The notes beneath the pieces are model-generated. The model had not been told where the DNA came from. It worked only from the letters and a program-made list of their open reading frames with translations, and searched no databases. A DNA stretch of 64,000 nt from Octopus vulgaris (lineage: Eukaryota). Below, piece by piece: positions 13,978-64,000 of the stretch. The position numbers were made by a program, and so were the translations under genes. Numbering within the stretch: position 1 is the first letter of the stretch; each line of letters opens with the position of its first letter. Location: NCBI GenBank assembly GCA_951406725.2, contig OX597843.1, forward strand, positions 20,894,001 through 20,958,000, read 5' to 3'.

Positions 13978-16558
13978 GTGATAAGTCCATTCAGATTAGC
14001 GTAAGATATGGGCGCCACGGGACACCGCTGACGGTGGGAGGGACCTTCTTGTCTCATTGGTTAGCTACTGCCTACCTGAAGCAGGGCAGCCCCCAGTTAA
14101 TAAGTTGCTGACCCACCACAGGCCGCCTGCTTCATTGGGTTCTTGGGGCTAAGAGTTTGACTTGAAAAAACGGCCTGCAACATCTGCACCAGGCAAACAA
14201 CTAAAAGACAAGAAACCACCAGTCCTGCGGTTAGAAAACTGGGATGTCAGGACCATGTGCCCTGGAATATCTGATGATCTACTCAGGGTTGAAGACACAA
14301 GAAAGACGGCCATCATTGACCGTGAACTAGAGAGGCTTAACATAGACATTGCTGGGCTGCAGGAGCCAAGACTCCCCTCAAACGGGAAAGTCAAAGAACA
14401 GGATTTCACCTTCTTTTGGCAGGGAAGCGATCTAGAAGAACCTCGTCAGCATGGCGTTGGCCTTGCAGTGAGAAACTCATTACTCTCCTCAATAGAACCA
14501 CCATCAGGAGACACTGAGCGTATCCTCTCACTGCGCCTCTCGACTTCTTCTGTTTCAGTATATCTACTGAGCATCTATGCTCCCACTCTCTACAGCCCAG
14601 AGGAGACCAAGGACCAGTTCTACAAAGATCTCAACTGTGTCATTAAAAATATACCAACAAATGAAAACATCTACCTTCTAGGAGATTCGTGCCCCATTTA
14701 TGTTGGATACACTGATATTGGCAACATGAATGACAATGGTGAGAGACTACTTGAATTTTGCCCATACCATAACCTGGGCGTCACCAGCACATACTTTGCC
14801 AACAAGCCATCACACAAGGCATCTTGGAGACATCCAAGATCTCACCACAGGCATCAGATGGATCTCATCATTACACGAAGATCCTTTCTGAATTCTGTTC
14901 ACCTGACCCGTAGTTACCACACAGATCACTCACTAATTAGAAGCAGGGTGAGGATCCTGCCTAGAAAAGTCCATCACTCCAAGAAAAAGGGCCGATCACG
15001 CATTAACACTGCCAGAAGCTCGGATCCTACACAGCGAAAATGTTTTGCTGTTTCTATCAAGGTGCCCTCAGTAGTTGCCCAACCCCCTTTGCTGAAATTA
15101 GGTGGAATTATATCAGGGAAGCTTTGTATACCTCATCAATAGATACCTTCGGCATGAGAGAAAGGCAACACCCAGATTGGTTCAGTGATGGGCTCTTAGA
15201 GCTGGAACCAGTTATCGAAGCAAAGCATGCAGCTCTGATGCAATACAAGAGTGATTCTTCTACAAAATCACTCGAAGAACTCAGAAAGGCAAAAAATATA
15301 ACCCAACTGACAGCCAGATGCTGTGCAAATAGGTATTGGCAGGAAATCTGTCAGAGTATCCAGTCAGCTGCTGAGAGTGGCGATACCCGTGGGATGTATG
15401 CCGGTTTAAAGAAGGCCCTCGGTCCATCCGCAACCAAGTCAGCCCCTGTGAAATCAACTACTGGAGATATCATCAGGGATCAAGGCAAGCAAATGTATAG
15501 ATGGGTGGAGCACTACCAGGATCTCTATTCACGGGAGACTACAGTGGCTGAGGCTGCAGTCGTGAGTGTCAAGATCTTGCCAGTCATGTGCGAACTTGAC
15601 GGTGGGCCATCTATAGCAGAGCTCACCAAGGCTGTTGACTCCCTAGCAAGAAATAAGGCTCCGGGAAAAGACGGCATCCCCTCAGAGGTCATCAAAGCCG
15701 GCAAAAACACCATCCTGCTTCGGCACCATCATGAGCTTCTGTGTCAGTGTTGGGAAGAGGGTAGAGTCCCTCAGGATATGCAGGATGCTAACATCATCAC
15801 GATTTACAAAAACAAAGGTGACCGTGGTGATTGTAACAATTACCGTGGAATATCCCTTCTACGCACTGTTGGAAAGACCTTTGCCCGCGTTACCCTGGCC
15901 AGGCTACAACTACTTGCTTCTCGAATCTATCCGGAATCGCAGTGTGGCTTTTGAAGAAACAGATCAACTATCAATATGATATTCTCCATACGCCAACTTC
16001 TGGAGAAGTCCAGAGAGCAGAAAATGCCATTACATATGGCCTTCGTTTGTAAGTAGAAAAGGCCTCTTCATCCTGCTCCAAAAAATCGGATGTCCACCAA
16101 AGCTGCTGAGGATCATCAAATCTTTCCATGATGATATGCAAGGCACCATACAGCACAATGGTTCAACATCAGCTGCCTTCCAAATAAAAAACGGAGTAAA
16201 GCAAGGTTGTGTCCTTGCTCCTACATTATTTGGCATCTTCTTCTCGCTCTTACTTTCACATGCCTTTCAGACATCAGATGCTATTTGCTGATAATGCTGC
16301 TCTGGTATCACACACAAAAGAAGCCATACAAAGGCTCATCAACTGTTTTGAGCAGGCATGTAACGACTTTGGCTTAGCTATCAGCCTCAAGAAGACCAAC
16401 ATCATAGGTCCGGCTACACCGGACATCCCAAACATACATATTGGAGACCACAGATTACAGGAGGTTGAGACGTTTACCTATCTTGGCTCTACCGTCACCT
16501 ACAACCTATCCCTTGACGCTGAGCTCAATATACGCATTGGCGAGGCAGCTGTGGTGAA
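13978..16558 (+). mobile_element. RTE-clade LINE (APE endonuclease plus RT), pseudogenised and 3'-deleted
   Basis: WDVRTM, IDIAGLQE, SIYAPT (APE); NKAPGKDGIP, CNNYRGISLL, PESQCGF, GVKQGC, MLFADNAAL (RT). Confidence 0.93.
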
Positions 16559-16789
16559 GGCTCAAGATATACAACGGACTGGAAATAGAAGTGCTCTAAT
16601 GAGCTGTATACACTTTTTGTTTATATCCGAGGGGAGGCAATGCGAGCAACAACTACAGGAACATCGCAAAATCCACAGAAACACCAAATACATACAAATC
16701 TTCATATACTCATTTATATCTATAAAACCCGACATTTAAAAAATTTTAAATGTAGTAATATATAAATATATCACATAAAAATATAAATT

Positions 16790-19055
16790 TTGCTTATAAC
16801 ACCTTGAATCTAGGGAGGGGCAACGGCTTAAAATAGGCATTGCAGCCGGATGCACGATATCAGTCATCTTATTTGTGTTAGTCATTGGAAATGCTACTCA
16901 GATCTACAAACTGTGAGAAAGCTGTTACTAAGACACCATTAAGGGCTTTTATGGACGACGTAACTATATTATCAGAAAGTAGAGAAGCAGCAGAGGAAAC
17001 GTTAGAGCGGTTGGACGAACTGATAGGATGGGCATGGATGAAATTCAAAGCCAAAGAATCTCGAAGCGTGAAAGAAGGCAAGAAGTGAAATTCAGGATAG
17101 GAGGTGAAGACATACCAACGGCGAAAGAACAACAGGTAAAGAGTCTCGGCAGATGATCTATAAAGATTTATTAAATGATAAGAAGCAAGGAAAAGAAACA
17201 ACGAGTTAGTAGAACAAGGATTAAAGGCAATTGACAGAACAACGCTGCCGGGAAAATGTTGGATACTGCAATTTGGTCTGTCCCCAAGAATAATGTGGCC
17301 ATTACAAATGTACGAAATAGCCTCGAGTAGAATAGAAAGGATGGAGCAAAAATGCAGTGTGTTTATCAGAAAATGGCTTGGTCTGCCGAAACCACTGAAT
17401 ACAACTGCACTATATGGAAAAGCCGAGCTGCAACTACCAATAACATCAATCGCCGAAGAATATAAGGCAGGAAAGGCAAGGACAGTAATGATGCTAAGGT
17501 ATTCAAAAGACCAGAGTATCCGGGAAAACCCTTCAAAGGTACGATCAGGGAGGAAATGGAAGGCGGAAGAGGCAGTAAACAGGGTTATCGGAAAACTAAA
17601 GCACGCAGATATAGTCGGAGCGACGCAAGAAGCTACAACCAGCCTAGGGTCACAAAATTTCAGGCCATTTTGCAAGAGCAGTGTAAAAGAGATGAAAGAG
17701 GCATTGGTATACGAAGTGAGAAAGGAGGAAGAAGAAAGGCGAAATGTACATTTTGTGCAATGCAGTTAAAATGGACAATGCCTGAGATGGGAGGAATATA
17801 TGATCAACCGCAGAATATCATGGAAGGAACTTTGGGCTTGGGAACAAGCAAGAACATCCTTCCTGATCAAGTCTACCTCCGACTTCTACCCTCACCGGCG
17901 AACTTAATCCGGTCGAACATAAACAAAATTGATGATTGTAGATGCGGAGAGAAAGCGACGGTTAGACATGTTATGTCAAGTTGCAGACTAGCACTTGAAA
18001 GAAATACTTGGCAGCATAATCAAGTCCTCAGCGTCATAAGCGCAGCACTCAAGGATAAGATCGAGAGGTACAATTGGGGAGAGTACCTAAAAGTAGAAAA
18101 GCGCAGGAAGTATACTTCCACAAGGAGGGAAAAGGTTATAAAACCAGGCCTACAAGTAAAGTATACAAGATAGACGAAGGATGGAAGGGATACTTGGAGG
18201 TGGCCACGGACTTGGAAAGACAAGTAGTATTTCCACTAATAAAAACAACACAAAGACCGGACTTAGTTCTATGGAACAGAGACCAGGGAATGGGAATTTT
18301 AAGGTCTGACAGTACCTTGGGAAGAGAACATCGGCAATGAAACTAAAGGAGAAGAGATACGAAAAGCTAATCGAAGAATGCAGAGAACAGGGATTGAATG
18401 TCGAATATTATCACCTGGCAATGAGGGCTAGAGGCTTCTTTGAAAAGAAAATGACAACGCTTTTCAAAAGAAGATTTGTTTTTTGTAGCCCCGAGCTGCG
18501 TAAACTAATAAGGAGAGTACAGGAGGCGGTCGAAAAAGCCAGCTTCTATATATGGCTGAAGCGGGAAGACCGAAGATGGCTTGAAAGTCATAAACACGCC
18601 GACGGGAAGTAACATCATTAGGTGAAACTGGCTGACTGAATCAGCTTCGCTGACTGACAGGTGATGGTCGTTTAGAAAAAGCGCGGGCTAAAGCTACACA
18701 CCTTCTCTAGTCAGTTAAGGTGAGACAGTGCCACGTGACAAGTAGCTGGGGCTATGTAAAGAGCAGGTATTTAAAGAGAGAAATTTGACAAGACAGTCAG
18801 TCACCAGCTGACACTCGCTGACGATACATCGAAGAGGCCAGGGAAAAGAAGAAAGAAGAAGAACGGAGACATGTACCCAACACCAGAACTGAAGACACCT
18901 CCAAAAGGAGGGGTCCCGCCACGTCAAAACTGTAGAGGAGTAGGGGCCGAAACAAGACGTGGTTCCTCCAGACTATGTCTTGAGTTAACTGGATCCTATA
19001 AAGGAGCTGTTGGTGTAGCAGACCACGAAACACGGTTGTAATTCCTAAGTATAAA
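16790..19055 (+). mobile_element. HERO-type (R2-group, restriction-like endonuclease) LINE, 5'-truncated
   Basis: GIAAGCTIS, RAFMDD, RKWLGLP, C-x-C..H..C knuckle, WQHNQVL, RPDLVLW and a structured 3' UTR. Clade assigned from motifs. Confidence 0.85.
18892..18981 (+). ncRNA. HERO 3' UTR pseudoknotted hammerhead-like RNA, core-mutated copy
   Basis: All stems of the 62971-63059 fold are present, but CTGATGA is replaced by CAGACTA (18969-18975). Confidence 0.6.
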
Positions 19056-22000
19056 TTTGTTACAATAAGAGAAATAAATAGAATAATAATAAATAAAAAT
19101 AAAGCATACAATGGCAAATTAAAAGACGAATTAAAATTCTAGCGAAATGTACATAGAAGATAATAATTATACAATTTACAAAAATATAAGTTTACAAAGA
19201 TACAGAGAAGTCCCTCTACCGGCCGTTTCGGAGACGCGCCAATTAATATTAGTCAAATCATATACTTAAAATTGGCACACCCCTCATCAGGTAATCCTAT
19301 ACATACAACACATAGTAAACGTGAACAAATACACAATTACATACCGGCCATATTCAGAAACGAGACATTACGTACTCCCAGAAATTTTTCTCCGATCCTG
19401 AATGCTATTTTATATGCATATATTTCGATCAGCAGCCATAGTAAATGATATGCACACAGCGCCATCTGGACCATTTCACTTCTGCACTTATTTTATTTTA
19501 TTTTTCTTCAATCTGATAAGTTCTCACATACATGCAAAGCCACATATTCGGGTTCAAGTCCTTGACACATTTTATACTAATAGCTATTTTTTCTTTTAAT
19601 AATTACATTACTTTAGTTTTATTTCATTCACTTCTTACTATGCTTACTAAATTTAATTCAATTGTTATCGCTTAGCTCTAACTTTTATTGCTATTTCTAT
19701 TTCTAAATTTCTTATAGAACGTCGAGTGGATCTTATGCGTACACGCCGGTATTGCATCAGTGAACTTATTTAACACTGCGTTGTTGTAATTTTTCAATAT
19801 AGTATATGCTTCCCTTATGCATAAACCGCATCTAGTGGACCCAATTCTATAAGGGGAGGCATGCACAAGGATAGCCCATGATATTTTAAATTCAACATCC
19901 CTTTCCTTAAGGTCATTAACATGTAATGCCAATGTTGTAGAGGTCCTATATTTAGGATTGTTGAAAGAGCTCAGGTGGAACCGATACCTCTGCTTAAAGT
20001 CTACTGTGCTTCCAATATATATTTTTCTCTGGCCTCCTTGAGCCTCAACACTACATTTTCCTGGCGACAATTTCCGCTAATCGGACATACTGATGGGCCC
20101 CCTACAATTACATTTCTTCAACCTGCTACGGGGTCTCGTATTACTGATCACTCCGAAACCATGCCCCCTCCCAGTACTAGGATCCACCATATCATTTACA
20201 CCATCGTTCCTACTATTTTCCGGTATATGTATTGTTATATGTATATGTATTGTTATTCTTACTATTACAATCATTCTTATTTTTATTTTTACTAATATTT
20301 GTATTACCATTATCACTACAATTAACACTATTATTACCACCCTGATAATCATTATAATCACTAATATCAATCACCAACATCATTATTATGATTATCTCTA
20401 CTATTTGCATTATTTGTCATTCCAATACGCCCTTCATAATCGATTTCAGAAGACGTACTATTAATATTACTACTATCTTCTATGTCCTTAATGAATTTTC
20501 CATTAAAGCTTCTGTCATCATTTCTATCATTATAGCGCCTTATTTTACTTCTGTTCAACGAAGCAACAATAGATCCGACATTGGGAGTGTCTGAGTAGGC
20601 CACCTTGATTGTTGACTTGTTACATATTGAATAGTACTTATGATGTTTTGGGATATTTTCCTTCAATAACTTTAAAAATAGCTTTGGTAAACCTTTCACC
20701 CTTAATGAAAAGGGAGAGGCAAACCAAGTAACTTGACGAATCCTAGACTTAGTATTAATAATGGGATTACAATATGTTGCTTGACTTGATGTACTAAATG
20801 TAAAGCCATTCCTGTATCTATTAGTAATATTTATATTTTTATTTTTACTAACTATTAGTATTATTCTTATTCCTATTTTTCACCTTCACTAGAACTAAGC
20901 CCAACTTTAAACCTCAATTCACATTTATGACTCCTATTATTTGCAACCCCTTCCCTCCCGTTGCTGTTATCATCCATGGTACTTTCATCATTACAATTCT
21001 CATTATTAACCTTATTAACGTGGTTACCATTTACAAAACCAACCACATCACATTTAGTTCCCTTATTTCCAAATCCCATTTTATCAGCATAAATATTGGT
21101 CATTATCAGCTTGTTGCGAGTTCCTTGGGGATCATGAGGGGAGCCTCTGCTATCCGAAACCCGTTTCATACCGTCGCTGACCATGCTGGCCAACTTAATT
21201 TTTAATTTTGTATTGTGCATGTATTCAATATTATTTGTGAACCCACTCAATTTTAAGGCATGTTGTATATTGGGGCGTGTTGATTAAAAATGTTTTTTTC
21301 GCCGATAGGTTTGAGATTCTGATAGAAATTGCCAGTTATAATGCTATTGATGGTTGATTTGGGATGATTTGAGGAAACATTGATATATCGGGAAGTTTGG
21401 TTTGGTTTTCGGAAAGGGTAGTGTAAGGGAGTATTCAGATCGAGAGTGATGTCGAAGAAATCTGCCACTTTAGGATTATTCTCAAAAACGATGCTTAAAT
21501 TATAAAAGTCCTTGAAAAATTCTTTAAGGTCCTTCTTCATTCTTTCAATCTGAGGATTTGAATGATTAGAGACGATGAATAATGCGTCATCCCAGTAAAT
21601 CCCTCCGGATAGAGATGGAAAAAACCGCTTAAACTTGTCTAACAAAAATAGACCAACAATATCCGTTACTTGAGCCGAGTCCGATAATCCCATAGTGATG
21701 TCGAATAAATTAAAAGAATCCGATTTAGACAAGTGGTGCTTTCCATAATTTATCAGAGTCAGTCTTGCTGCTTGAATAATATCAATATCTAGATTCGATA
21801 TTTCAACAAAGTTCCCGGCTAAAACGATTGCTTTATTCAGTAAGATGGGAGAGATCGAGGAGTAGTAATTCGAAATATCAAATTGTACAAATGAAGATGA
21901 GTCATCACATTTAATTGTGTGAAACCAATATAAAACATCATTGGTAGATTCCCATAAGGGCAACATCGTCCTTTCACTTATCACTGGAATAATTCTATCC

Positions 22001-22420
22001 ACTATGGATTTGCTGATTCTACCCAAGTCAGATTTAGTTGGGCAAATTAATCGTATTGACAGTTTGGCAAGAAAATCTTTTTAATGGGCCTTTAGGGTGC
22101 AGTGCGGGGTCTTAGGATCATAAGGTTGCGTGCGGTCAAGGATTCCTAATTCAGAAATTAATTCGTCGTGTCTATTATTAATGTCGGTAAGAGCCGATTT
22201 CTTGGCGATTTTGTATTTAGCGTGCAGCTCTTTGGATATCAATTCATCATAAGTTTCATAAGGCACTGAATAAATATTGCCTGTTTTATCAGAAAGAATG
22301 TGTGGATTAGGATCTAAATGTTGGGCTTTATAGATATAAATGAGTATATGAAGATTTGTATGTGTTTGGTCTTTCTGTGGATTTTGTGATGCTCCTGTGG
22401 TTGTTGCTCCCATTGCCTCC
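19056..22420 (-). mobile_element. Naiad-type Penelope-like element (RT, Cys linker, GIY-YIG, pLTR), frameshifted
   Basis: RT ORF 21253-22026 (VQFDISNYY, FDITMG, GIYWDDAL, DFFDITLDL); linker CNCRGPSVCPISGNC across a 1-nt frameshift near 20100; EN ORF 19678-20070 (KIYIGST..FKQRY..CGLCIRE). Confidence 0.92.
19211..19300 (-). ncRNA. Minimal hammerhead ribozyme in the PLE pLTR
   Basis: Minus strand: CTGATGA, 14-bp stem II (ggggtgtgccaatt/aattggcgcgtctcc), GAAAC-GGCCG-GTA. Stem I pairs poorly. Confidence 0.7.
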
Positions 22421-46727: not shown

Positions 46728-49085
46728 TAATACTGGATGCGTTGAACACTGTTTTTCGATTTGGAAAGCGATCCAGGACGCCAAACAGAACAAGAAAACT
46801 CTGAACGTGGTAAGGCTCGACCTAGCTAACGCGTATGGTTCAGTGCCACACGAATTACTAATAACAGCCATGGACCACTTTCATATTCCTGACAAAGTGA
46901 TCAAAATAATGAGGATATACTATGACAGTTTCGAAATGAGGTTTACACCTGGAAATTGTACAACAAATTGGCACCGATGAGAGGTTGGCATTGCTGCTGG
47001 CTGTACAATATCTGTCACATGGTTTTTCTTGGTCATGGAGTTGATTTTAAAAGGTGTAGATTTTCCGGAACAAATCGCCCATGTACAATCGCCTAAGAAA
47101 GCCTTCATGGATGACGTGTCACTTCTAGCTACAGATAAACAAATCATGCAGAATGACCTCTTGAGATTAGACGAACTTGTAAGGTGGTCAAGGATGCGAT
47201 TTAGAGCAAAAAAGTCGTGTAGTCTGACATTTGTTAAGGGAGTCAGAAAGAATTTAAGTTCCGGATATCTGAAGAAAGCATTCCAACAGTCAAGGAAGAG
47301 CCCGTCAAGAGCTTGGGACGAGTATACGCTGGAACATTGTCAGACAGAAGTCATGGGATTGAAATTATGAAACAGGCCGAGGCTGGGTTATCAGCGATTG
47401 ATAATTCGAAGTTACCAGGTAAATATAAAATTTGGTGCTTGCAGTTCAGCTTGTACCCGCGACTTGCGTGGCCACTTTTAATATACGAAGTAGCATTGTC
47501 ACGAGTTGAAAGCATTGAAAAAAAATGTAATGTGTTCATTAGAAAGTGGCTAGGCCTACCTCGTATGTTGAACAACTCAGCTCTTTATCATAAAAGAGGT
47601 TCGTTGCAGCTACCAATAGCATCAATATTCGAACTATATAAGCTGGGGAAGATACGGACGGTCATGATGCTGAGAGAATCGAAGGATATGGAAATCAGGC
47701 GTAACCCACCAGAGATGAACACAGCCAGGAAGTGGAAAGTAGAAGCAGAAACTGACGACATTTTGTCTTCTCTTATACACAGAGATATGGTGGGAACAAC
47801 GCAGAATCATCGGAAAGGACTTGGTTTTGGCGCAGATCAATTCAGACCGTTTGCAAGCATGATGAGGAGTGAACGCAGATCTGTTGTTAGCAACAGCGTC
47901 AAAACAAGAGAAGCAGAGAGAAGAGATCTTCATTTGATCCGATGTGTTCATCAAGGTCAGATGACGAGATGGGAAGAACATGTTGTTGAGAGGAAGATAA
48001 GTTGGGTTGAGATGTGAAAGTGGACGACATCTCGGCTGAGTTTCCTGATTCGTTCATCTCGTGATGTTTTGCCATCACCTACGAATCTAGTAAGATGGAA
48101 CGTCTTAGAGAATGTGGAAAGGTCGGTACACTAAAACATATTCTTTCCAACTGTTCATTAGCATTGAACAGGTATACATGGAGGCACAACTTGGTCCTTA
48201 AGGTTATCTTCAATGCTATAAAGAACGAAATTCATCTCAACAACACTGAGGAAAAACCGTTGAAAGTACCATCAAGAGATTTCATTACCTTCGTGCGACC
48301 AGGTCAGCGGATCCGTTTCAAGAAGTATGGTCAAGAAACTTCCTGAGAAAAATGAAAAGTGGAACGGCTATTGGGAGGTAACTGCAGATTTACCTGGGTG
48401 CCAGGTTTTCTTTTCCATCCCAGTTTCGAAAAAAACATATATTTTGATGTGGTGTGAAAGAAAGAAAGTTGTAAATATAGTCGAGCTAACGGTTCCTCAT
48501 GAAGATAATATGAACGCCGCTCGGGCTCGAAAATTGAACCGTTATGAAAACCTCCTCGAGGAATGTGAAGACGCAGGCTGGAAAGTGGAACATTTTCCTA
48601 GCGAAGTCGGATGTAGAGGGTTTGTTGGATACAGCGTGAGACGACTGTTGTTATCGCTAGGCCTAACTCATCGTAAAGTCAATACCACTATGTCTGATAT
48701 CCAATCTACAGTGGAGAAGGCTAGCCACTGGATTTGGTTAACAAGAGACTATGAGCGATGGCTAGAAGTATATTGAGTTTAACTTCATAACCAGCTGATC
48801 TAGCAAGCGGGGCCTCATATCAGTGAGGGGGGCCGGTGCGAATTGATGCCGTCGAGAGGTAGGCCCCGAAACGGCGCGCATTCTCTCCTGATGACCCATA
48901 CACTTGCTAGCTTCCGGTATACGGAGCTTTCAACTGGTAGCACGAGCATGTGCAAGTTGTTTGCAAGACATATATATTCAAATAAATTCTCTCTCTCTGA
49001 TCCACAGATGCAGTTCACAGATCCTTGATGATCCTACTAATGGACAGTAAAGATACACGAAACCTAGAAAAAAACCTCTATGAAT
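46728..49085 (+). mobile_element. HERO-type RLE LINE, second (divergent) family, 5'-truncated
   Basis: GCVEH, LDLANAYGSVPH, GIAAGCTIS, KAFMDD, RKWLGLP, CGKVGTLKHILSNC, RYTWRHN, VELTVPHED, EVGCRGF. Confidence 0.88.
48800..48910 (+). ncRNA. HERO 3' UTR pseudoknotted hammerhead-like RNA, intact core
   Basis: GTC (48851-53), GAAA (48868-71) and CTGATGA (48888-94), with paired stems covarying against 62971-63059. Confidence 0.7.
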
Positions 49086-56644: not shown

Positions 56645-59600
56645 GTGTTCGATTCGACAGTCTTCCGGCAGCTCCTGCAACCAAGCTGGTGCCAAACGTA
56701 ATGCTCTGCACTCCTTTGGACTACATCATCAAGGTCAAGAGAAGAATCCTGACGATTGGGCTACCCGGGATGTTCTTACTTCTAGCCGAGGCCTGCGCAA
56801 AACTGGAGAAGACACTTTAGTGCTGCTGTAAAAAGTGGCAGAAAAATACGGGAGGTAACAGTCACGAGTGATAAGTTCATTCAAATTGGTGTAAGATATA
56901 GGCGCTACGGGTCACCTCTGACGGTTGGAGGGGCCTCCGTGTCCCATTGGTTTGCGACTGCTCACCTCAAGATGGGCAGCCCTCAGTTAATAAGGTGCTG
57001 ACCCGCCACAGGCCGCCTGTTTCATTGGCGCTTGGAGCAAAGAGTTTGACTTGAAAAGCGCCCTGCAGCCTCTGCACCAGGCAAGCAGCTAAAAGACAAG
57101 AAACCACCCGTCCTGCGGTTAGCAAGCTGGAATGTCAGGACTACGTGCCCTGGAATATCTGATGATCTACTCAGGGTTGAAGACACAAGAAAGCCGGCCA
57201 TCATTAACCGTGAACAAAACAGGCTTAACATAGACATTGCTGGGCTGCAGGAGCCAAGAATCCCTTCAAACGGGAAAGTCAAAGAACAGGATTTCACATT
57301 CTACTCAGCATCTATGCTCCCACTCTCTACAGCCCAGAGGAGACCAAGGACCAGTTCTACATAGATCTCAACTGTGTCATTAAAAATATAACAACAAATG
57401 AAAACATCTACCTTCTCGGAGATTCGTGGCCCATTTGTGTTGGACACCTTGATATTGACAGCATGAATGACAATGGTCAGAGGCTACTTGAAATTTGCAC
57501 ATACCATGCGCATCACTAACACATTCTTTGCCAACAAGACATCACACAAGGCATCTTGGAGAAATCCAAGATCTCACCACAGGCATCAGATGGATCTCAT
57601 CATTGCACGAAGATCCTTTCTGAATTCTGTTCACCTGACCCGTAGTTACCACACAGATCACTCACTAATTGGAAGCATGGTGATGATCCTGCCTAAAAAA
57701 GTCCATCACTCCAAGAAAATGGGCTGACCACGCATTAACACTGCTAGAATCTCGGATCCTACACAGCGAAAATGTTTTGCTGTTTCTATCAAGGTTGCCC
57801 TCAGTAGCTGCCCAACCTCCTCTGCTGAAATTAGGTGGAATTATATCAGGGAAGCTTTGTATACCACATCAATAGATACTTTCGGCATGAGAGAAAGACA
57901 AAACCCAGATTGGTTCAGTGCTGGGCTCTCAGAGCTGGAACCAGTTATCGAAGCAAAGCGTGCAGCTCTGATGCAATACAAGAGTGATTCTTCTACAAAA
58001 TCACTCGATGAAATCTGAAAGGCAACAAATATAACCCAACTGACAGCCAGACACTGTGCAAATAGGTATTTGGCAGGAAATCTGTCAGAGTATCCAGTCA
58101 GCTGCTGAGAGTGGCGACACCCGGTGGGTGTATGCCGGTTTGAAGGAGGACCCTCGGCCCATCCGCAACCAAGTCAGCCCCTCTGAAATCAACTACTGGA
58201 TATCTCATCAAGGATCAAAGCAAGAAAATGGATAGATGGGTGGAGTACTACCAGGATCTCTACTCACGGGAGACCACGGTAGCTGAGGCTGCAATCGAGA
58301 GTGTCAAGATCTTGCCAGTCATGTGAGAACTTCACAGTCCACCATTTATAGCAGAGCTCAACAAGGCTATTGACTCCCTACCAAGTAACAAGGCTCCGGG
58401 AAAAGACGGCATCCACTCAGAGATAATCAAAGCCGGCTAAAACACCATCCTGCTTCGGCACCATCATGAGCTTCTGTGTCAGTGCTGGGAAGAGCGTACA
58501 GTTCCTCAAGATATGCGGGATGCTAACATCATTACGCTTTACAAAAACAAAGGTGACTCTGGTGAATGTAACAATTATCGTGGAATATCTCTTCCACGCA
58601 CTGTTGGAAAGACCTTTGCTCACGTTATCCTGCCCAGGGTACAACTGCTTGCTTCTCGAATTCATCCGAAATTGCTGTGTGGCTTTAGAAGGAGCAGATA
58701 AACTATTGACATGATATTCTCCATACGCCAACTTCAGGAGAAGTCCAGAGAGCAGAAATTCCATTACATATGGCCTTCATTGGTAAGTAGAAAAGGCCTC
58801 TTCATCCTGCTCCAAAAAATCGGATGTCCACCAAAGCTGCTGAGGATCATCAAATCTTTCCATGACGATATGCAAGGCACCATACAGCACAATGGTTCAA
58901 CAACAGCCGCCTTCCAAATAAAAAACGGAGTAAAGCAAGGTTGTGTCCTTGTTCCTACATTATTTGGCGTCTTCTTCTCGCTGCTGCTCTCACATGCCTT
59001 TCAGACATCAGATGATGGAGTGTTTCTGCAGAGTAGAAGTGACTGGAGACTGTTCAATCTTCACGCCTGCGTGGCAAGACCAAAATCAGAAGCGTCCTGC
59101 TCAGGGAAATGCTATTTGCTGATGATGCCGCTCTGGTATCACACACAGAAGAAGCCCTACAAAGGCTCATCAGCTGTTGTGAGCAGGCATGTAACGATTT
59201 TGGCTTAGCTATCAGCCTCAAGAAGACCAACATCATGGGTCGGGCTATACCAGACATCCCAAACATACATATTGGAGACCACAGATTACAGGAGGTGGAG
59301 AGTTTTACCTATCTTGGCTCTACCGTCACCTACAACCTACCCCTTGATGTTGAGCTCAATATACGCATTGGCAAGACAGCTGCTGTGATGGCCCAACTCT
59401 CGAAACGAGCATGGGTCAACATTAAGCTGACCAAGAACACAAAAATGAAGATTTACCAGGCATGTGTACTTAGCACTCTACTGTATGGAAGTGAGGCTTG
59501 GACGCCATTCACACGCCAAGAGCGTCGCCTAAATATCTTTCACCTGCGCTGCCTCTGGAAAAGCCTTCGCATCAAATAGCAGAATCATGTCCCCAACAAA

Positions 59601-60879: not shown

Positions 60880-63120
60880 TTTTGCATATAACACCTTGAA
60901 TATATGGAGTGGCAGCGGCTTGAAATAGGTATTGCAGCCGGATGCACGATATCAGTCATCTTATTCGTGCTAGTCATGGAAATGCTACTCAGATCTACAA
61001 ACTGCGAGAAAGCTGTTACTAAGACACCATTAAGGGCTTTTATGGACGGCATAACTATATAATCGGAGAGTAGAGAAGAAGCAGAGGAAATGCTTGAGCG
61101 ATTGGACGAACTGATAGGATGGGCAAGGATGAAATTCAAAGCCAAAAACTCTCGAAGCGTGGCTTTCGTGAAAGGAAGACAAGAAGTGAAATTCAGGATA
61201 GGAAGTGAAGACATACCAACGGTGAAAGAACAACCAGTAAAGTGTCTCGGCAGATGGTATAGAGATTTATTAAATGATAAGAAGCAAGGGAAATAAACAC
61301 ACGAGTTAGAAGAACAAGGATTAAAGGCAATTGACAGAACAACGCTGCTGGGAAAATTCAAATGTTGGATACTGCAATTTGGGCTGTACCCAAGAATAAT
61401 GTGGCCATTGCAAATGTACGAAATAGCCTCGAGTAGAATAGAAAGGATGGAACAAAGATGCAGTGTGTTTATCAGAAAATGGCTTGGTCTGCCGAAACCA
61501 CTGAATACAACTGCACTATATGGAAATGCCGTGCTGCAACTACCAATAACCTCAATCGCCGAAGAATATAAGGCAGGAAAGGCAAGGGCAGTAATGATGC
61601 TAAGGTATTCAAAAGATCAGAGTATCCGGGAAAACCCTCCAAAGGTACGAAAAGGGAGGAAATAGAAGGCGGAAGAGGCAGTAAACAGGGCGATAGGAAA
61701 ACTAAAGCACGCAGATATAGTCGGAGTGACGCAAAAGCTACAACCGGCCTAGGGTCGCAAAATTTCAGGCCATTTTGCAAGAGCAGTGTAAAAGAGATGA
61801 AAGAGGCATTGGTATACGAAGTGAGAAAGGAGGAAGAAGAAAGGCGAAATGTACATTTTGGTGATGCAGTTAAAGGACAATGCCTGAATGGGAGGAATAT
61901 GTGATCAACCGCAGAATATCATGGAAGGAACTTTGGGCTTGGGAACAAGCAAGAACATCCTTCCTGATCAAGTCTACCTTCCGACGTTCTACCTTCACCG
62001 GCGAACTTAGTCCGGTGGAACATAAACAAAATTGATGACTGTAGATGCGGAGAGAAAGCGACGGTTAGACATGTTCTGTCAAGTTGCAGACTAGCACTTG
62101 AAAGATATACTTGGCAACATAATCAAGTCCTCAGCGTCATAAGCGCAGCACTCAAGGAGAAGATCGAGAGGTACAATAGGGGAGAGTACCCAAAAGTAGA
62201 AAAGCGCAGGAAAGTATACTTCCACAGGGAGGGAAAAGACCTACAAGTAAAGTATACAAGATAGATGAAAGATGGAAGGGATACTGGGAGGTGGCCACGG
62301 ACTTGGAAAGACAAGTAGTATTTCCACTAATAAAAGCAACAAAAAGACCGGACTTAGTTCTATGGAACAGAGACCGGGGAATGGGAATTTTACTAGAACT
62401 GACAGTACCTTGGGAAGAGAACATCGGCAATGAAACTAAAGGAGAAGAGATACGAAAAGCTAATCGAAGAATGCAGAGAACAGGGATGGAATGTCGAATA
62501 TTATCACCTGGCAATGGGGGGTAGAGGCTTCTGTGAAAAGAAAATGACAACGCTTTTCAAAAGAAGATTTGTTTTTTCTAGCCCCGAGCTGCGTAAACTA
62601 ATAAGGAGAGTACAGGAGGCGGTCGAAAAAGCCAGCTTCTATATATGGCTGAAGCGGGAAGACCGAAAATGGCTTGAAAATCATAAACACGCCGACGGGA
62701 AATAACATCATTAGGTGAGACTGGCTGACTGAATCAGCTTCGCTGACTGACAGGTGAGGGTCGTTTAGAAAAAGCGCGGGCTAAAACTACGCACCTTCTC
62801 TAGTCAGTTAAGGTGAGACAGTGTCATATGACAAGTGGCTGGGGCCTATGCGGCAGGTACTTAAAGAGAGAAATTTGACAAGACAGTCAGTCACCGGCTG
62901 ACACTCGCTGACGATACGTCGAAGAGGCCAGGGAAAAGAAGAACGAAGACATGACCCAACACCAGAGCTGAAGACACCTCCGAAAGGGGGGTCCCGCCAC
63001 GTCAAAACGGTAGAGGAGTAGGGGCCGAAACCGGACGTGGTTCCTCCTGATGATGTCTTGAGCTTAACTGGATCCTATAAAGGAGCTGTTGGGGTAGCAG
63101 ACCACGAAACACGGTTGTAA
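60880..63120 (+). mobile_element. HERO-type RLE LINE, duplicate of 16790-19055
   Basis: GIAAGCTIS, AFMDG, RPDLVLW..LLELTVPWEE; same junctions as copy 1. Confidence 0.88.
62971..63059 (+). ncRNA. HERO 3' UTR pseudoknotted hammerhead-like RNA, intact core
   Basis: GTA (63010-12), GAAA (63027-30) and CTGATGA (63047-53); stems listed in findings. Confidence 0.7.
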
Positions 63121-64000
63121 TTCCTAAGTATAAATTTGTTACAATAAGAGAAATAAATAGAATAATAATAAATAAAAATAAAGCATACAATGGCAAATTA
63201 AAAGACGAATTAAAATTCTAGCGAAATGTACATAGAAGATAATAATTATACAATTTACAAAAATATAAGTTTACAGAGATACAGAGAAGTCCCTCTACCG
63301 GCCGTTTCGGAGACGCGCCAATTAATATTAGTCAATTCATTTACTTAAAATTGGCACTCCCCTCATCAGGATGTCCTATACATACAACACATAGTAAACG
63401 TGAACAAATACACAATTACATACCGGCCATATTCAGAAACGAGACATTACGTACTCCCAGAAATTTTTCTCCGATCCTGAATGCTATTTTATATGCATAT
63501 AATTCGATCCAGCGGCCATAGTAAATGATATGCACACAGCGCCATCTGGACCATTTCACTTCTGCACTTATTTTATTTTATTTTTCTTCAATCTTATAAG
63601 TTCTCACATACATGCAAAGCCACATATTCGGGTTCAAGTCCTTGACCCTTTTTATACTAATAGCTATTTTTTCTTTTAATAATTACATTACTTTAGTTTT
63701 ATTTCATTCACTACTTACTATACTTTCTAAATTTAATTCAATTGTTATTGCTTAGCTCTAACTTTTATTGCTATTTCTATTTCTAAATTTCTTATAGAAC
63801 GTCGAGTGGATCTTATGCGTACACGCCGGTATTGCATCAGTGAACTTATTTAACACTGCGTTGTTGTAATTTTTCAATATAGTGTATGCTTCCCTTATGC
63901 ATAAACCGCATCTAGTGGGCCCAATTCTATAAGGGGAGGCATGCGCAAGGATAGCCCATGATATTTTAAATTCAACATCCCTTTCCTTAAGGTCATTAAC
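63121..64000 (-). mobile_element. 3' end of Naiad-type PLE (GIY-YIG end plus pLTR), duplicate of 19056-19920; runs off the window
   Basis: Near-identical to 19040-19920. Confidence 0.9.
63290..63380 (-). ncRNA. Minimal hammerhead ribozyme in the PLE pLTR
   Basis: Minus strand: CTGATGA-ggggagtgccaatt..aattggcgcgtctcc-GAAACGGCCGGTA. Confidence 0.7.

Follow-up and report, generated by a model that had tools for sequence, protein, structure and literature searches.

A putative hammerhead ribozyme of new connectivity at the ends of a HERO-like retrotransposon that may copy itself through a circular RNA

Hammerhead ribozymes whose conserved blocks do not follow one of the circularly permuted orders are represented by the type-SGC hammerheads (HRIMA-1 and its variants; Eckert et al. 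2023, PMC10085705), which, according to the accessible part of that paper, come from metatranscriptomes only, with none in the genomes of known organisms, and cleave in vitro. Among mobile elements, circular RNAs have been shown for retrozymes, which are small and non-coding and whose monomers are circularised far better by RtcB than by self-ligation (Cervera and de la Pena 2020, PMC7229834), and they have been proposed for Penelope-like elements (PMC6765202); here and below, cited papers are referred to for the portions of their text that were accessible. Here we describe a motif found in a stretch of 64,000 nucleotides (nt) of Octopus vulgaris DNA (contig OX597843.1, positions 20,894,001 to 20,958,000; "the window"), where it lies near the 3' end of copies of a retrotransposon without long terminal repeats (non-LTR) that encodes a reverse transcriptase (RT) and a restriction-like endonuclease (RLE). 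Judged by sequence comparison, the motif is very probably an active hammerhead, with a connectivity that adds to the six-permutation scheme set out in PMC10085705 and lies outside it. The reading that we favour as the probable one is that this ribozyme sets the RNA ends of an autonomous, HERO-like RLE element that is copied via a unit-length circle.

Fold and conservation of the motif

The segments that the initial annotation quoted from 48800-48910 stand where it placed them, after an open reading frame (ORF) whose stop codon ends at 48776, and the copy at 62971-63059 also reads as it was described. The two copies belong to distinct families, A and B, as had been proposed: the ORF proteins are 50.5% identical over 754 aa, and at the DNA level there is a weak alignment (63%) in the RT region only. 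The order of the conserved blocks is cleavage site, GAAA, CUGAnGA, that is, the S-G-C order of type-SGC hammerheads. The 5' strand of stem I leads into the 3' strand of stem II through 3 nt, while an extra helix, which runs directly into stem III, connects these two stems on their opposite sides. What comes next to CUGAUGA on its 3' side is paired with a segment from upstream (helix X); there follows a hairpin (H), and then a segment, Y, that pairs with the letters before GAAA. The predicted structure is a type-SGC chain with a break between A9 and G10.1, in which the part past the break now comes first and a four-way junction holds it in place. Since the 5' strand of stem II comes from upstream via this junction, the published SGC pattern cannot match it.

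Two helices recognized in the initial annotation are present and change their role in this scheme: the ggggcc/ggcccc pairing is stem II, its 5' strand being supplied from upstream, and the helix called "distal III" corresponds to the interaction helix between stems I and II of SGC hammerheads. The GTA linker, considered invariant, is common to families A and B, and the stem I-stem II linkers vary across the 22 families compared below. Both of these window copies are slightly decayed, most family copies having gggg/cccc (A) or ggcccc/ggggcc (B) when inspected by eye. Minimum free energy (MFE) folding of single copies, with z of -0.74 (A) and -2.98 (B), failed to recover the fold and is uninformative because the RNA is doubly pseudoknotted, and no hammerhead family was among 47 Rfam matches at E up to 5.

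For the comparative analysis, an alignment of 15 homologues led to 78 metagenome loci; the ORF end could be placed in 55, of which 49 have at least 150 nt after it. A descriptor that requires the core letters and stems I and III only matched after the ORF in 30 of these 49 RLE-element loci, in none of the 49 reverse strands and in none of 4,900 shuffles. The enrichment downstream of FMDD-type RT plus RLE ORFs that had been put forward as a check is therefore observed, and the equal rate in shuffled sequence that would have spoken against it is not. The same descriptor had no match in 85 viral or prokaryotic loci matching the primary motifs (5 viral loci and 80 of at least 120 prokaryotic stretches), and across the whole window it matched only at 48853 and 63012, the minus strand giving none. 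Of the 19 descriptor-negative metagenome loci (14 read by eye), 8 do contain the motif, altered by point defects, the contig breaks off too early in 3, a ubiquitin-hydrolase-like clade accounts for 6 and outgroups for 2; with the negatives explained in this way, the 9 label changes on the tree (46 of 51 rows) do not demonstrate real losses. In that RLE clade (L290, L294, L297, L301, L306 and L308; P0083, P0085 and P0088) the ORF continues into, or is annotated with, PF00443, the ubiquitin C-terminal hydrolase domain, and L290 has a weak ribozyme-like match about 1.1 kb further down.

The 30 matching loci and the two window copies were reduced to 22 families at less than 85% core similarity, the window copy of family A being dropped as redundant. 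Stems I and III are imposed by the descriptor; Y, X, H and the interaction helix lie outside it. Y, the upstream strand of stem II, forms at least 5 bp in 19 of the 22 (shuffled-upstream mean 4.4), and its first pair is G-C in 20, like the G10.1-C11.1 pair; X occurs together with H in 17 (shuffled mean 0.8), and the interaction helix has at least 4 bp in 17 (shuffled mean 7.0). All four elements are present in 15 of the 22 families against a shuffled mean of 0.07 (maximum 2). The claim that a covarying, hammerhead-type fold is under selection is supported. A classical stem II, with at least 4 bp and a strand directly after CUGAnGA, was found in 0/22. Five pair types are seen at positions 1 and 2 of stem I and four at position 3 of stem III, so that covariation is found in predicted stems I, II and III around the hammerhead core, the G10.1-C11.1 pair included. 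The comparison shows that the RNA, as predicted from these families, pairs as stems I, II and III around an S-G-C core, with the chain opened between A9 and G10.1 and clamped by X and H.

Circularity is avoided by a core-blind scan of the 49 loci (not dereplicated), which uses helix topology and block lengths alone. It recovered the fold in 24 loci, 22 of which score at least 70. All 22 high scorers have CUGAnGA, in which position 7 alone varies, and U at 16.1, and never G at position 17; the G block is GAAA in 20 and AAAA in 2. Two low scorers and seven reverse-strand folds (49-59) are without the core, and no fold was obtained in 25 loci, 8 of these descriptor-positive. The hammerhead core with a NUH triplet is thus found in the window copies and, independently of its letters, by the core-blind scan.

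Further features surround the motif. A small TCC...GGA hairpin past the ribozyme (window 48911-48950 and 63070-63100) is common to families A and B and recurs in 9 of the 30 metagenome loci, including L265, L267, L273, L279, L286, L287 and L334; it is a candidate RT-binding element near the priming site. Five of the 49 loci, all from one clade (L296, L303, L317, L331 and L332), have a tRNA-type B-box in the interval that separates the ORF from the ribozyme; an A-box is present in three, and the distance where placed is about 70-100 nt upstream of the cut. ARAGORN detected no tRNA in 12 loci, and the B-box could be an RNA polymerase III-type promoter ahead of the ribozyme. In family A, a deletion of about 13 nt at the equivalent of 48823-48837, with at least two different junctions, recurs in about 27 of 44 rows inspected and takes away the 3' arm of the hairpin together with the upstream strand of stem II.

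Probable traces of cleavage and internal priming, and head-to-tail copies

If the RNA is cut in vivo, reverse transcriptase should run off at the cut. An exact pattern for family A copies that have lost the upstream sequence gave 33 matches genome-wide (here and throughout, in the window's genome of 2.8 Gb in 227 contigs), which by eye comprise 20 truncations where the element gives way to unrelated DNA, 8 copies that are intact or have an internal deletion, 2 unrelated sequences, 2 joins to ORF sequence (one of them, L200, exactly at the site) and 1 inversion. Within a 19-position window, 8 of the 20 truncations start exactly at G48854, the G after GUC, in accordance with the cut that had been predicted 3' of C48853; two start one base earlier and ten are at seven other positions (P 7.5e-6 for the pile under a uniform model with chance matches). 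Two further truncations at the site appear in a separate listing. The insertions that start at the site are 117 nt long, one with an internal deletion. As controls, about 11 truncations downstream (by eye) and about 10 upstream are spread over 14 positions each. The distribution provides strong grounds for cleavage in vivo after the NUH triplet, and would amount to genomic evidence of in-vivo cleavage at single-base resolution.

Two other origins of the pile were considered and rejected. CpG decay of a retained C is not compatible with most flanks ending in AT or TT, like other junctions; only 2 site-starting flanks keep a C, and under CpG decay, too, the pile would be no more than one base away from the bond. 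Microhomology between the target and GAG is at odds with the 3' flanks of these insertions, which begin with AT. In L209, an inversion is joined three bases before the cut.

The organization of long copies was analysed in 20 family A loci picked from intact-ORF matches. In seven of them the unit is preceded, across a precise head-to-tail junction, by another 241-1974 nt from the 3' part of the element, with the ribozyme, and the other 13 end at scattered points, so that there is no fixed 5' end. The unit measures 3,734-3,738 nt with an intact ORF, and its 5' untranslated region (UTR) directly follows the ribozyme tail; genome-wide, the exact junction is present at least 18 times. Family B has this form as well, with a unit of 3,916 nt (L344), as one clear case in 9 examined, the tandem rate of this family being poorly measured with 9 of 15 chosen stretches looked at. 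In metagenome contigs, most of which end too early, a ribozyme lies ahead of the ORF start in 4 of 30 (L275, L277, L285 and L317) and at both ends of L291; contigs with an upstream ribozyme may be collapsed repeats. Complete copies longer than one unit, as read from their sequence, show the predicted ribozyme both before and after the ORF. The position after the ORF given in the initial annotation holds for the 30 matching loci of 49, and the motif is not simply a 3'-UTR element, being also ahead of the ORF in long copies.

The two repeats of some tandem loci share variants that are absent from the other 19 long loci: one in L245, five in L258 and three in L259. In L258, three of the five are A to G within 50 nt in both repeats, possibly a trace of A-to-I editing of the RNA template. 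At the other end, the DNA that adjoins the apparent 3' terminus agrees with the first bases of the 5' UTR over at least 2 nt in 51 of 57 distinct flanks; the match extends to the third base in 23 of the 51 (P 2e-5) and to the fourth in 14 of these 23 (P 0.003), the longest, of 9 nt, being in a long copy. The first two matched bases could reflect an endonuclease preference, and the later ones suggest that the template continued into the 5' UTR. In four sequencing runs guessed to be RNA and available as contigs only, cover was fragmentary, ends did not pile up and the junction was not spanned by any contig with 31 letters on each side, a result that weighs neither for nor against the reading given here.

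Proposed cycle and alternative explanations

On the basis of these data, a transcript starting upstream of the first ribozyme would be cut at both sites, yielding a 3.74-kb monomer whose first base is the G that follows the triplet and whose last bases are the triplet itself, bearing a cyclic phosphate. Such an end is established hammerhead chemistry. Each end of the monomer would bear one half of the ribozyme, and the ends could pair again over about 30 bp, made up of the closing stem, X, stem II, the interaction helix and stem III; as this clamps both ends, it would suit ligation, either by the reverse reaction or by an RtcB-type ligase. The RT would prime about 117 nt downstream of the junction, with 2-9 nt of pairing to the start of the 5' UTR, and proceed around the circle, producing copies of more than one unit in which the upstream ribozyme is renewed each generation, and unligated RNA would give the 117-nt insertions. 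Translation would be cap-independent, and self-cleavage can drive cap-independent translation (PMC13725137). That a covalent circle is the normal template seems to us reasonably probable from the form of the genomic copies.

Several observations weigh against this scheme. Cleavage, ligation and the circular RNA are all deduced from DNA; the break between A9 and G10.1 is without tested precedent, block C having been assumed uninterruptible in PMC10085705, where the crystal structure also places the end of stem III far from the end of the interaction helix. With stem III and the interaction helix linked on both strands, the monomer may be strained or a dimer needed. The downstream control contains a lesser pile of 3-4 truncations at +25, and piles may have other causes; in family B the hotspot is weak, with 3 of its 8 truncations starting at the site (P about 0.05), and the truncation classes were assigned by eye, 3 of the 33 from a 35-letter match alone. 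Four of the seven tandem loci were chosen because neighbouring matches hinted at tandems, and four of the seven share no private variant. The twin repeats are not identical, one-sided differences occurring in all and numbering 11 in L259, and the G-run differs between the repeats in 5 of 6 scored loci.

The ribozyme could be active and the templates only ever linear: cleavage would trim the 5' end of read-through RNA from tandem loci, a role that HDV-like ribozymes have in R2 and L1Tc, and long insertions would be uncleaved concatemers. This accounts for the 117-nt insertions and the head-to-tail junctions, it fits twin repeats that differ at several positions, and the slow cleavage of SGC hammerheads (0.007-0.19 per min, PMC10085705) indicates that uncleaved RNA can persist. 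No locus with two full units was found among the 20 long loci, however, although some would escape stretches of 6-10 kb; where a locus consists of one unit and part of another, a 5' UTR follows the first priming site only, and such a locus would give no long copies with flanks matching the 5' UTR; daughter copies would shrink each round, and the shared private variants would need a separate homogenised tandem source for each locus. We regard purely linear templates as unlikely. The template might instead be a nicked circle, with ends that are paired and unligated and an RT that jumps from the 5' end to the 3' end. The RT of R2 jumps on non-continuous templates. Jumping would explain both the copies of more than one unit and the shared private variants, and some copies do have indels or joins at the site (L181, L200, L141 and L155). 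Most copies, however, cross it scar-free, the exact 18-mer of the family A motif being present in 702 genome copies against the 33 matches with disrupted upstream sequence, and by the time an RT reached the cut it should have displaced the strands that clamp the other end; jumping across a nick is accordingly considered quite unlikely.

Two further explanations part with the circle altogether. The fold could be a conserved RT docking structure that resembles a hammerhead and is not catalytic, in keeping with its position adjoining the priming point, the lack of an Rfam match and the absence of a textbook stem II, the letters after CUGAUGA pairing with those before GAAA in 0/22 families. Stem II is nevertheless present with its strand from upstream and a G-C first pair in 20/22, and the variation recovered without reference to the core is that of a hammerhead, down to the exclusion of G at 17. 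Furthermore, insertions start at a bond specified beforehand and without microhomology, at which point, we reason, the downstream partners would already have been copied and little structure would be left to stall the RT. A docking role instead of catalysis thus seems very improbable. Lower still do we place a self-destruct switch in the 3' UTR, by which cleavage parts the ORF from its tail and limits the expression or mobility of single-unit copies. It would suit the fact that the motif lies only after the ORF in most genomic copies, all three window ones included, and the recurrent deletion of the upstream stem II strand described above (~27/44 rows), but it leaves the head-to-tail junctions, the flanks matching the 5' UTR and the absent fixed 5' end unexplained.

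Returning to the circular template, the chances appear slightly better than even that a whole branch of autonomous RLE elements, comprising those of this animal genome and of divergent metagenome contigs, dozens in number, is without linear 5' and 3' ends: the RNA would be a protein-coding circle, cut and closed by a hammerhead that is split between the monomer ends, which together restore the active site, and it would be primed inside and rolled round. If so, an autonomous target-primed retrotransposon uses circular coding RNA and internal priming, and consensus annotations of these elements place the ends wrongly. As family A is young and has intact ORFs, the circle model is directly testable. 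Through the present motif, hammerheads outside the circularly permuted orders, so far a matter of anonymous contigs from metatranscriptomes, also gain a place in the genomes of cells and a role there, and a cut-and-close module made of one ribozyme is of interest for the production of circular RNA.

Genomic setting and relation to known systems

The host of the motif is an RLE-encoding non-LTR retrotransposon. Family A, many of whose genome copies have intact ORFs, contains an open frame of 1175 aa with a zinc finger, FMDDV, a CCHC knuckle and a PD-x-E endonuclease motif, homologues of the ORF match PF00078, and the genomic copies are a truncation series with lost 5' parts and a common 3' end. 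The few ORF homologues with names are from gastropod molluscs. Insertion flanks are unrelated, lie on many contigs and are often AT repeats, with no fixed target gene; such dispersed or microsatellite insertion fits HERO and is not unique to it. We use the term HERO-like following the initial annotation, the domain order and the dispersed insertion, the tree mentioned above containing no named HERO member. The features of the three window copies are collected in Table 1.

Table 1. Coordinates of the ribozyme-bearing elements and of the predicted ribozyme parts in the window
Position	Strand	Feature	Basis or remark
46733..48969	+	Family A RLE non-LTR copy, 5'-truncated and frameshifted; RT C-terminal part, CCHC knuckle, RLE, tail	94.5% to intact unit in L245; tblastn of RT homologues; stop ends 48776
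48800..48807	+	Closing stem, 5' strand; partner 48903-48910	sequence; MFE
48809..48812	+	Helix X, 5' strand (gggg); partner is the letters right after CUGAUGA, 48895-48897	
48813..48828	+	Hairpin H; arm of the four-way junction inserted between A9 and G10.1	
48829..48834	+	Stem II, 5' strand (Y, ggggcc), from upstream; first G pairs with C48867, equivalent of G10.1-C11.1	
48835..48840	+	Stem I-II interaction helix, 5' strand (ggtgcg); partner 48877-48882	pairing in families; HRIMA-1 analogy
48847..48853	+	Stem III, 5' strand (48847-52), with the GUC triplet; cut predicted at the bond C48853/G48854	
48854..48867	+	Stem I, 5' strand (48854-58), 3-nt linker GTA, stem II, 3' strand ggcccc (48862-67)	
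48868..48876	+	G block GAAA (48868-71 = G12 A13 A14 A15.1) and stem III, 3' strand	
48877..48887	+	Interaction helix, 3' strand cgcatt (48877-82), stem I, 3' strand ctctc (48883-87)	
48888..48897	+	C block CUGAUGA (48888-94), helix X, 3' strand ccc (48895-97)	
48898..48969	+	Closing stem, 3' strand, then the tail, which reaches the priming point 116-117 nt past the predicted cut	
60906..63125	+	Family B element, 5'-truncated, bearing the ribozyme at 62971-63059	91.9% to L344
62971..63059	+	Ribozyme of family B, built like that of A, with GUA as triplet; cut predicted at A63012/G63013	
16814..19046	+	Second family B element, 5'-truncated	ribozyme 18892-18981
18892..18981	+	Family B ribozyme, third window copy, broken C block and damaged stem III	no descriptor match

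The window also contains decayed ORFs of other retroelements at 14153-16739 (+), 58300-59600 (+) and 21253-22080 (-), among them two copies of an element with endonuclease and RT (weak PF03372) and one RT-like frame without a Pfam match, which from its motif we take to be Penelope-like. A Pfam search of 7 window ORFs gave a weak endonuclease match, on an unrelated element, as its sole result. The window copies of A and B recur many times with the same flanks at about 19.4-21.1 Mb of their own contig, a region that is a local segmental duplication cluster. Elsewhere, the family B ribozyme region is duplicated in tandem in L099, and two family A segments are inverted in L250.

In the open-access literature, type-SGC hammerheads appear in PMC10085705 only, as far as the accessible texts go, the present connectivity was not found, and HERO or RLE elements are in no paper connected with a hammerhead, with a head-to-tail unit or with a circle; that scope leaves out Repbase Reports, the majority of subscription journals and most of the Eckert supplement. 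The HERO clade (Kojima and Jurka 2015, PMC4640811) likewise has a single ORF with an N-terminal zinc finger, RT, CCHC knuckle and RLE, and dispersed insertion, often into microsatellites, and the accessible portion of its description makes no mention of a ribozyme, a head-to-tail unit or a circle. R2 and L1Tc, with their 5' HDV-like ribozymes (PMC6765202), resemble the present element, as modelled above, in having self-cleaving RNA ahead of the ORF and an uncapped 5' end; they differ in ribozyme class, in their linear RNA and in their distinct 5' and 3' UTRs, whereas here one hammerhead would make both ends and priming would occur 117 nt downstream of the predicted cut. Penelope-like elements also have hammerheads in tandem repeats, tandem genomic copies and proposed circles, yet they constitute a separate RT class with minimal type I hammerheads (PMC6765202). 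In retrozymes, a hammerhead cuts tandem transcripts into monomers, as is proposed here, and genomic copies are likewise in tandem; those of metazoan non-LTR type are 170-400 nt long and non-coding, with type I hammerheads (PMC7229834), and even the wider definition, by which the non-coding unit may measure 170-1000 nt and its hammerhead be of type I or III, does not include a unit of 3,734-3,738 nt with an intact ORF. Unlike either group, the present element is an autonomous one of 3.7-3.9 kb that encodes both RT and RLE.

As a ribozyme, the motif departs from classical types I, II and III in that its S-G-C order is not a circular permutation of theirs, and it matches no Rfam model. In the pseudoknot hammerhead (Zhan et al. 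2024, PMC11300833) the helix II strand likewise comes from elsewhere and the core works; its partner is the loop of an added stem-loop, in a pistol-like connectivity, in contrast to the S-G-C order, four-way junction and interaction helix seen here. The closest relatives remain the type-SGC hammerheads, which share the S-G-C order, the link of about 3 nt between stems I and II, the interaction helix, which can directly follow stem III, and the same core letters (PMC10085705). The present motif would work like them without being a member, as an uninterrupted block C was found in none of the 22 families: the other strand of stem II follows CUGAUGA(U)G in SGC hammerheads, whereas here it lies upstream of the cleavage site, the gap being bridged by X and H, and the 5' product, held by stem III alone in the former, would be held by about 30 bp in the latter. 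Finally, unlike the SGC hammerheads described in PMC10085705, it is present in hundreds of copies in retrotransposons of an animal genome.

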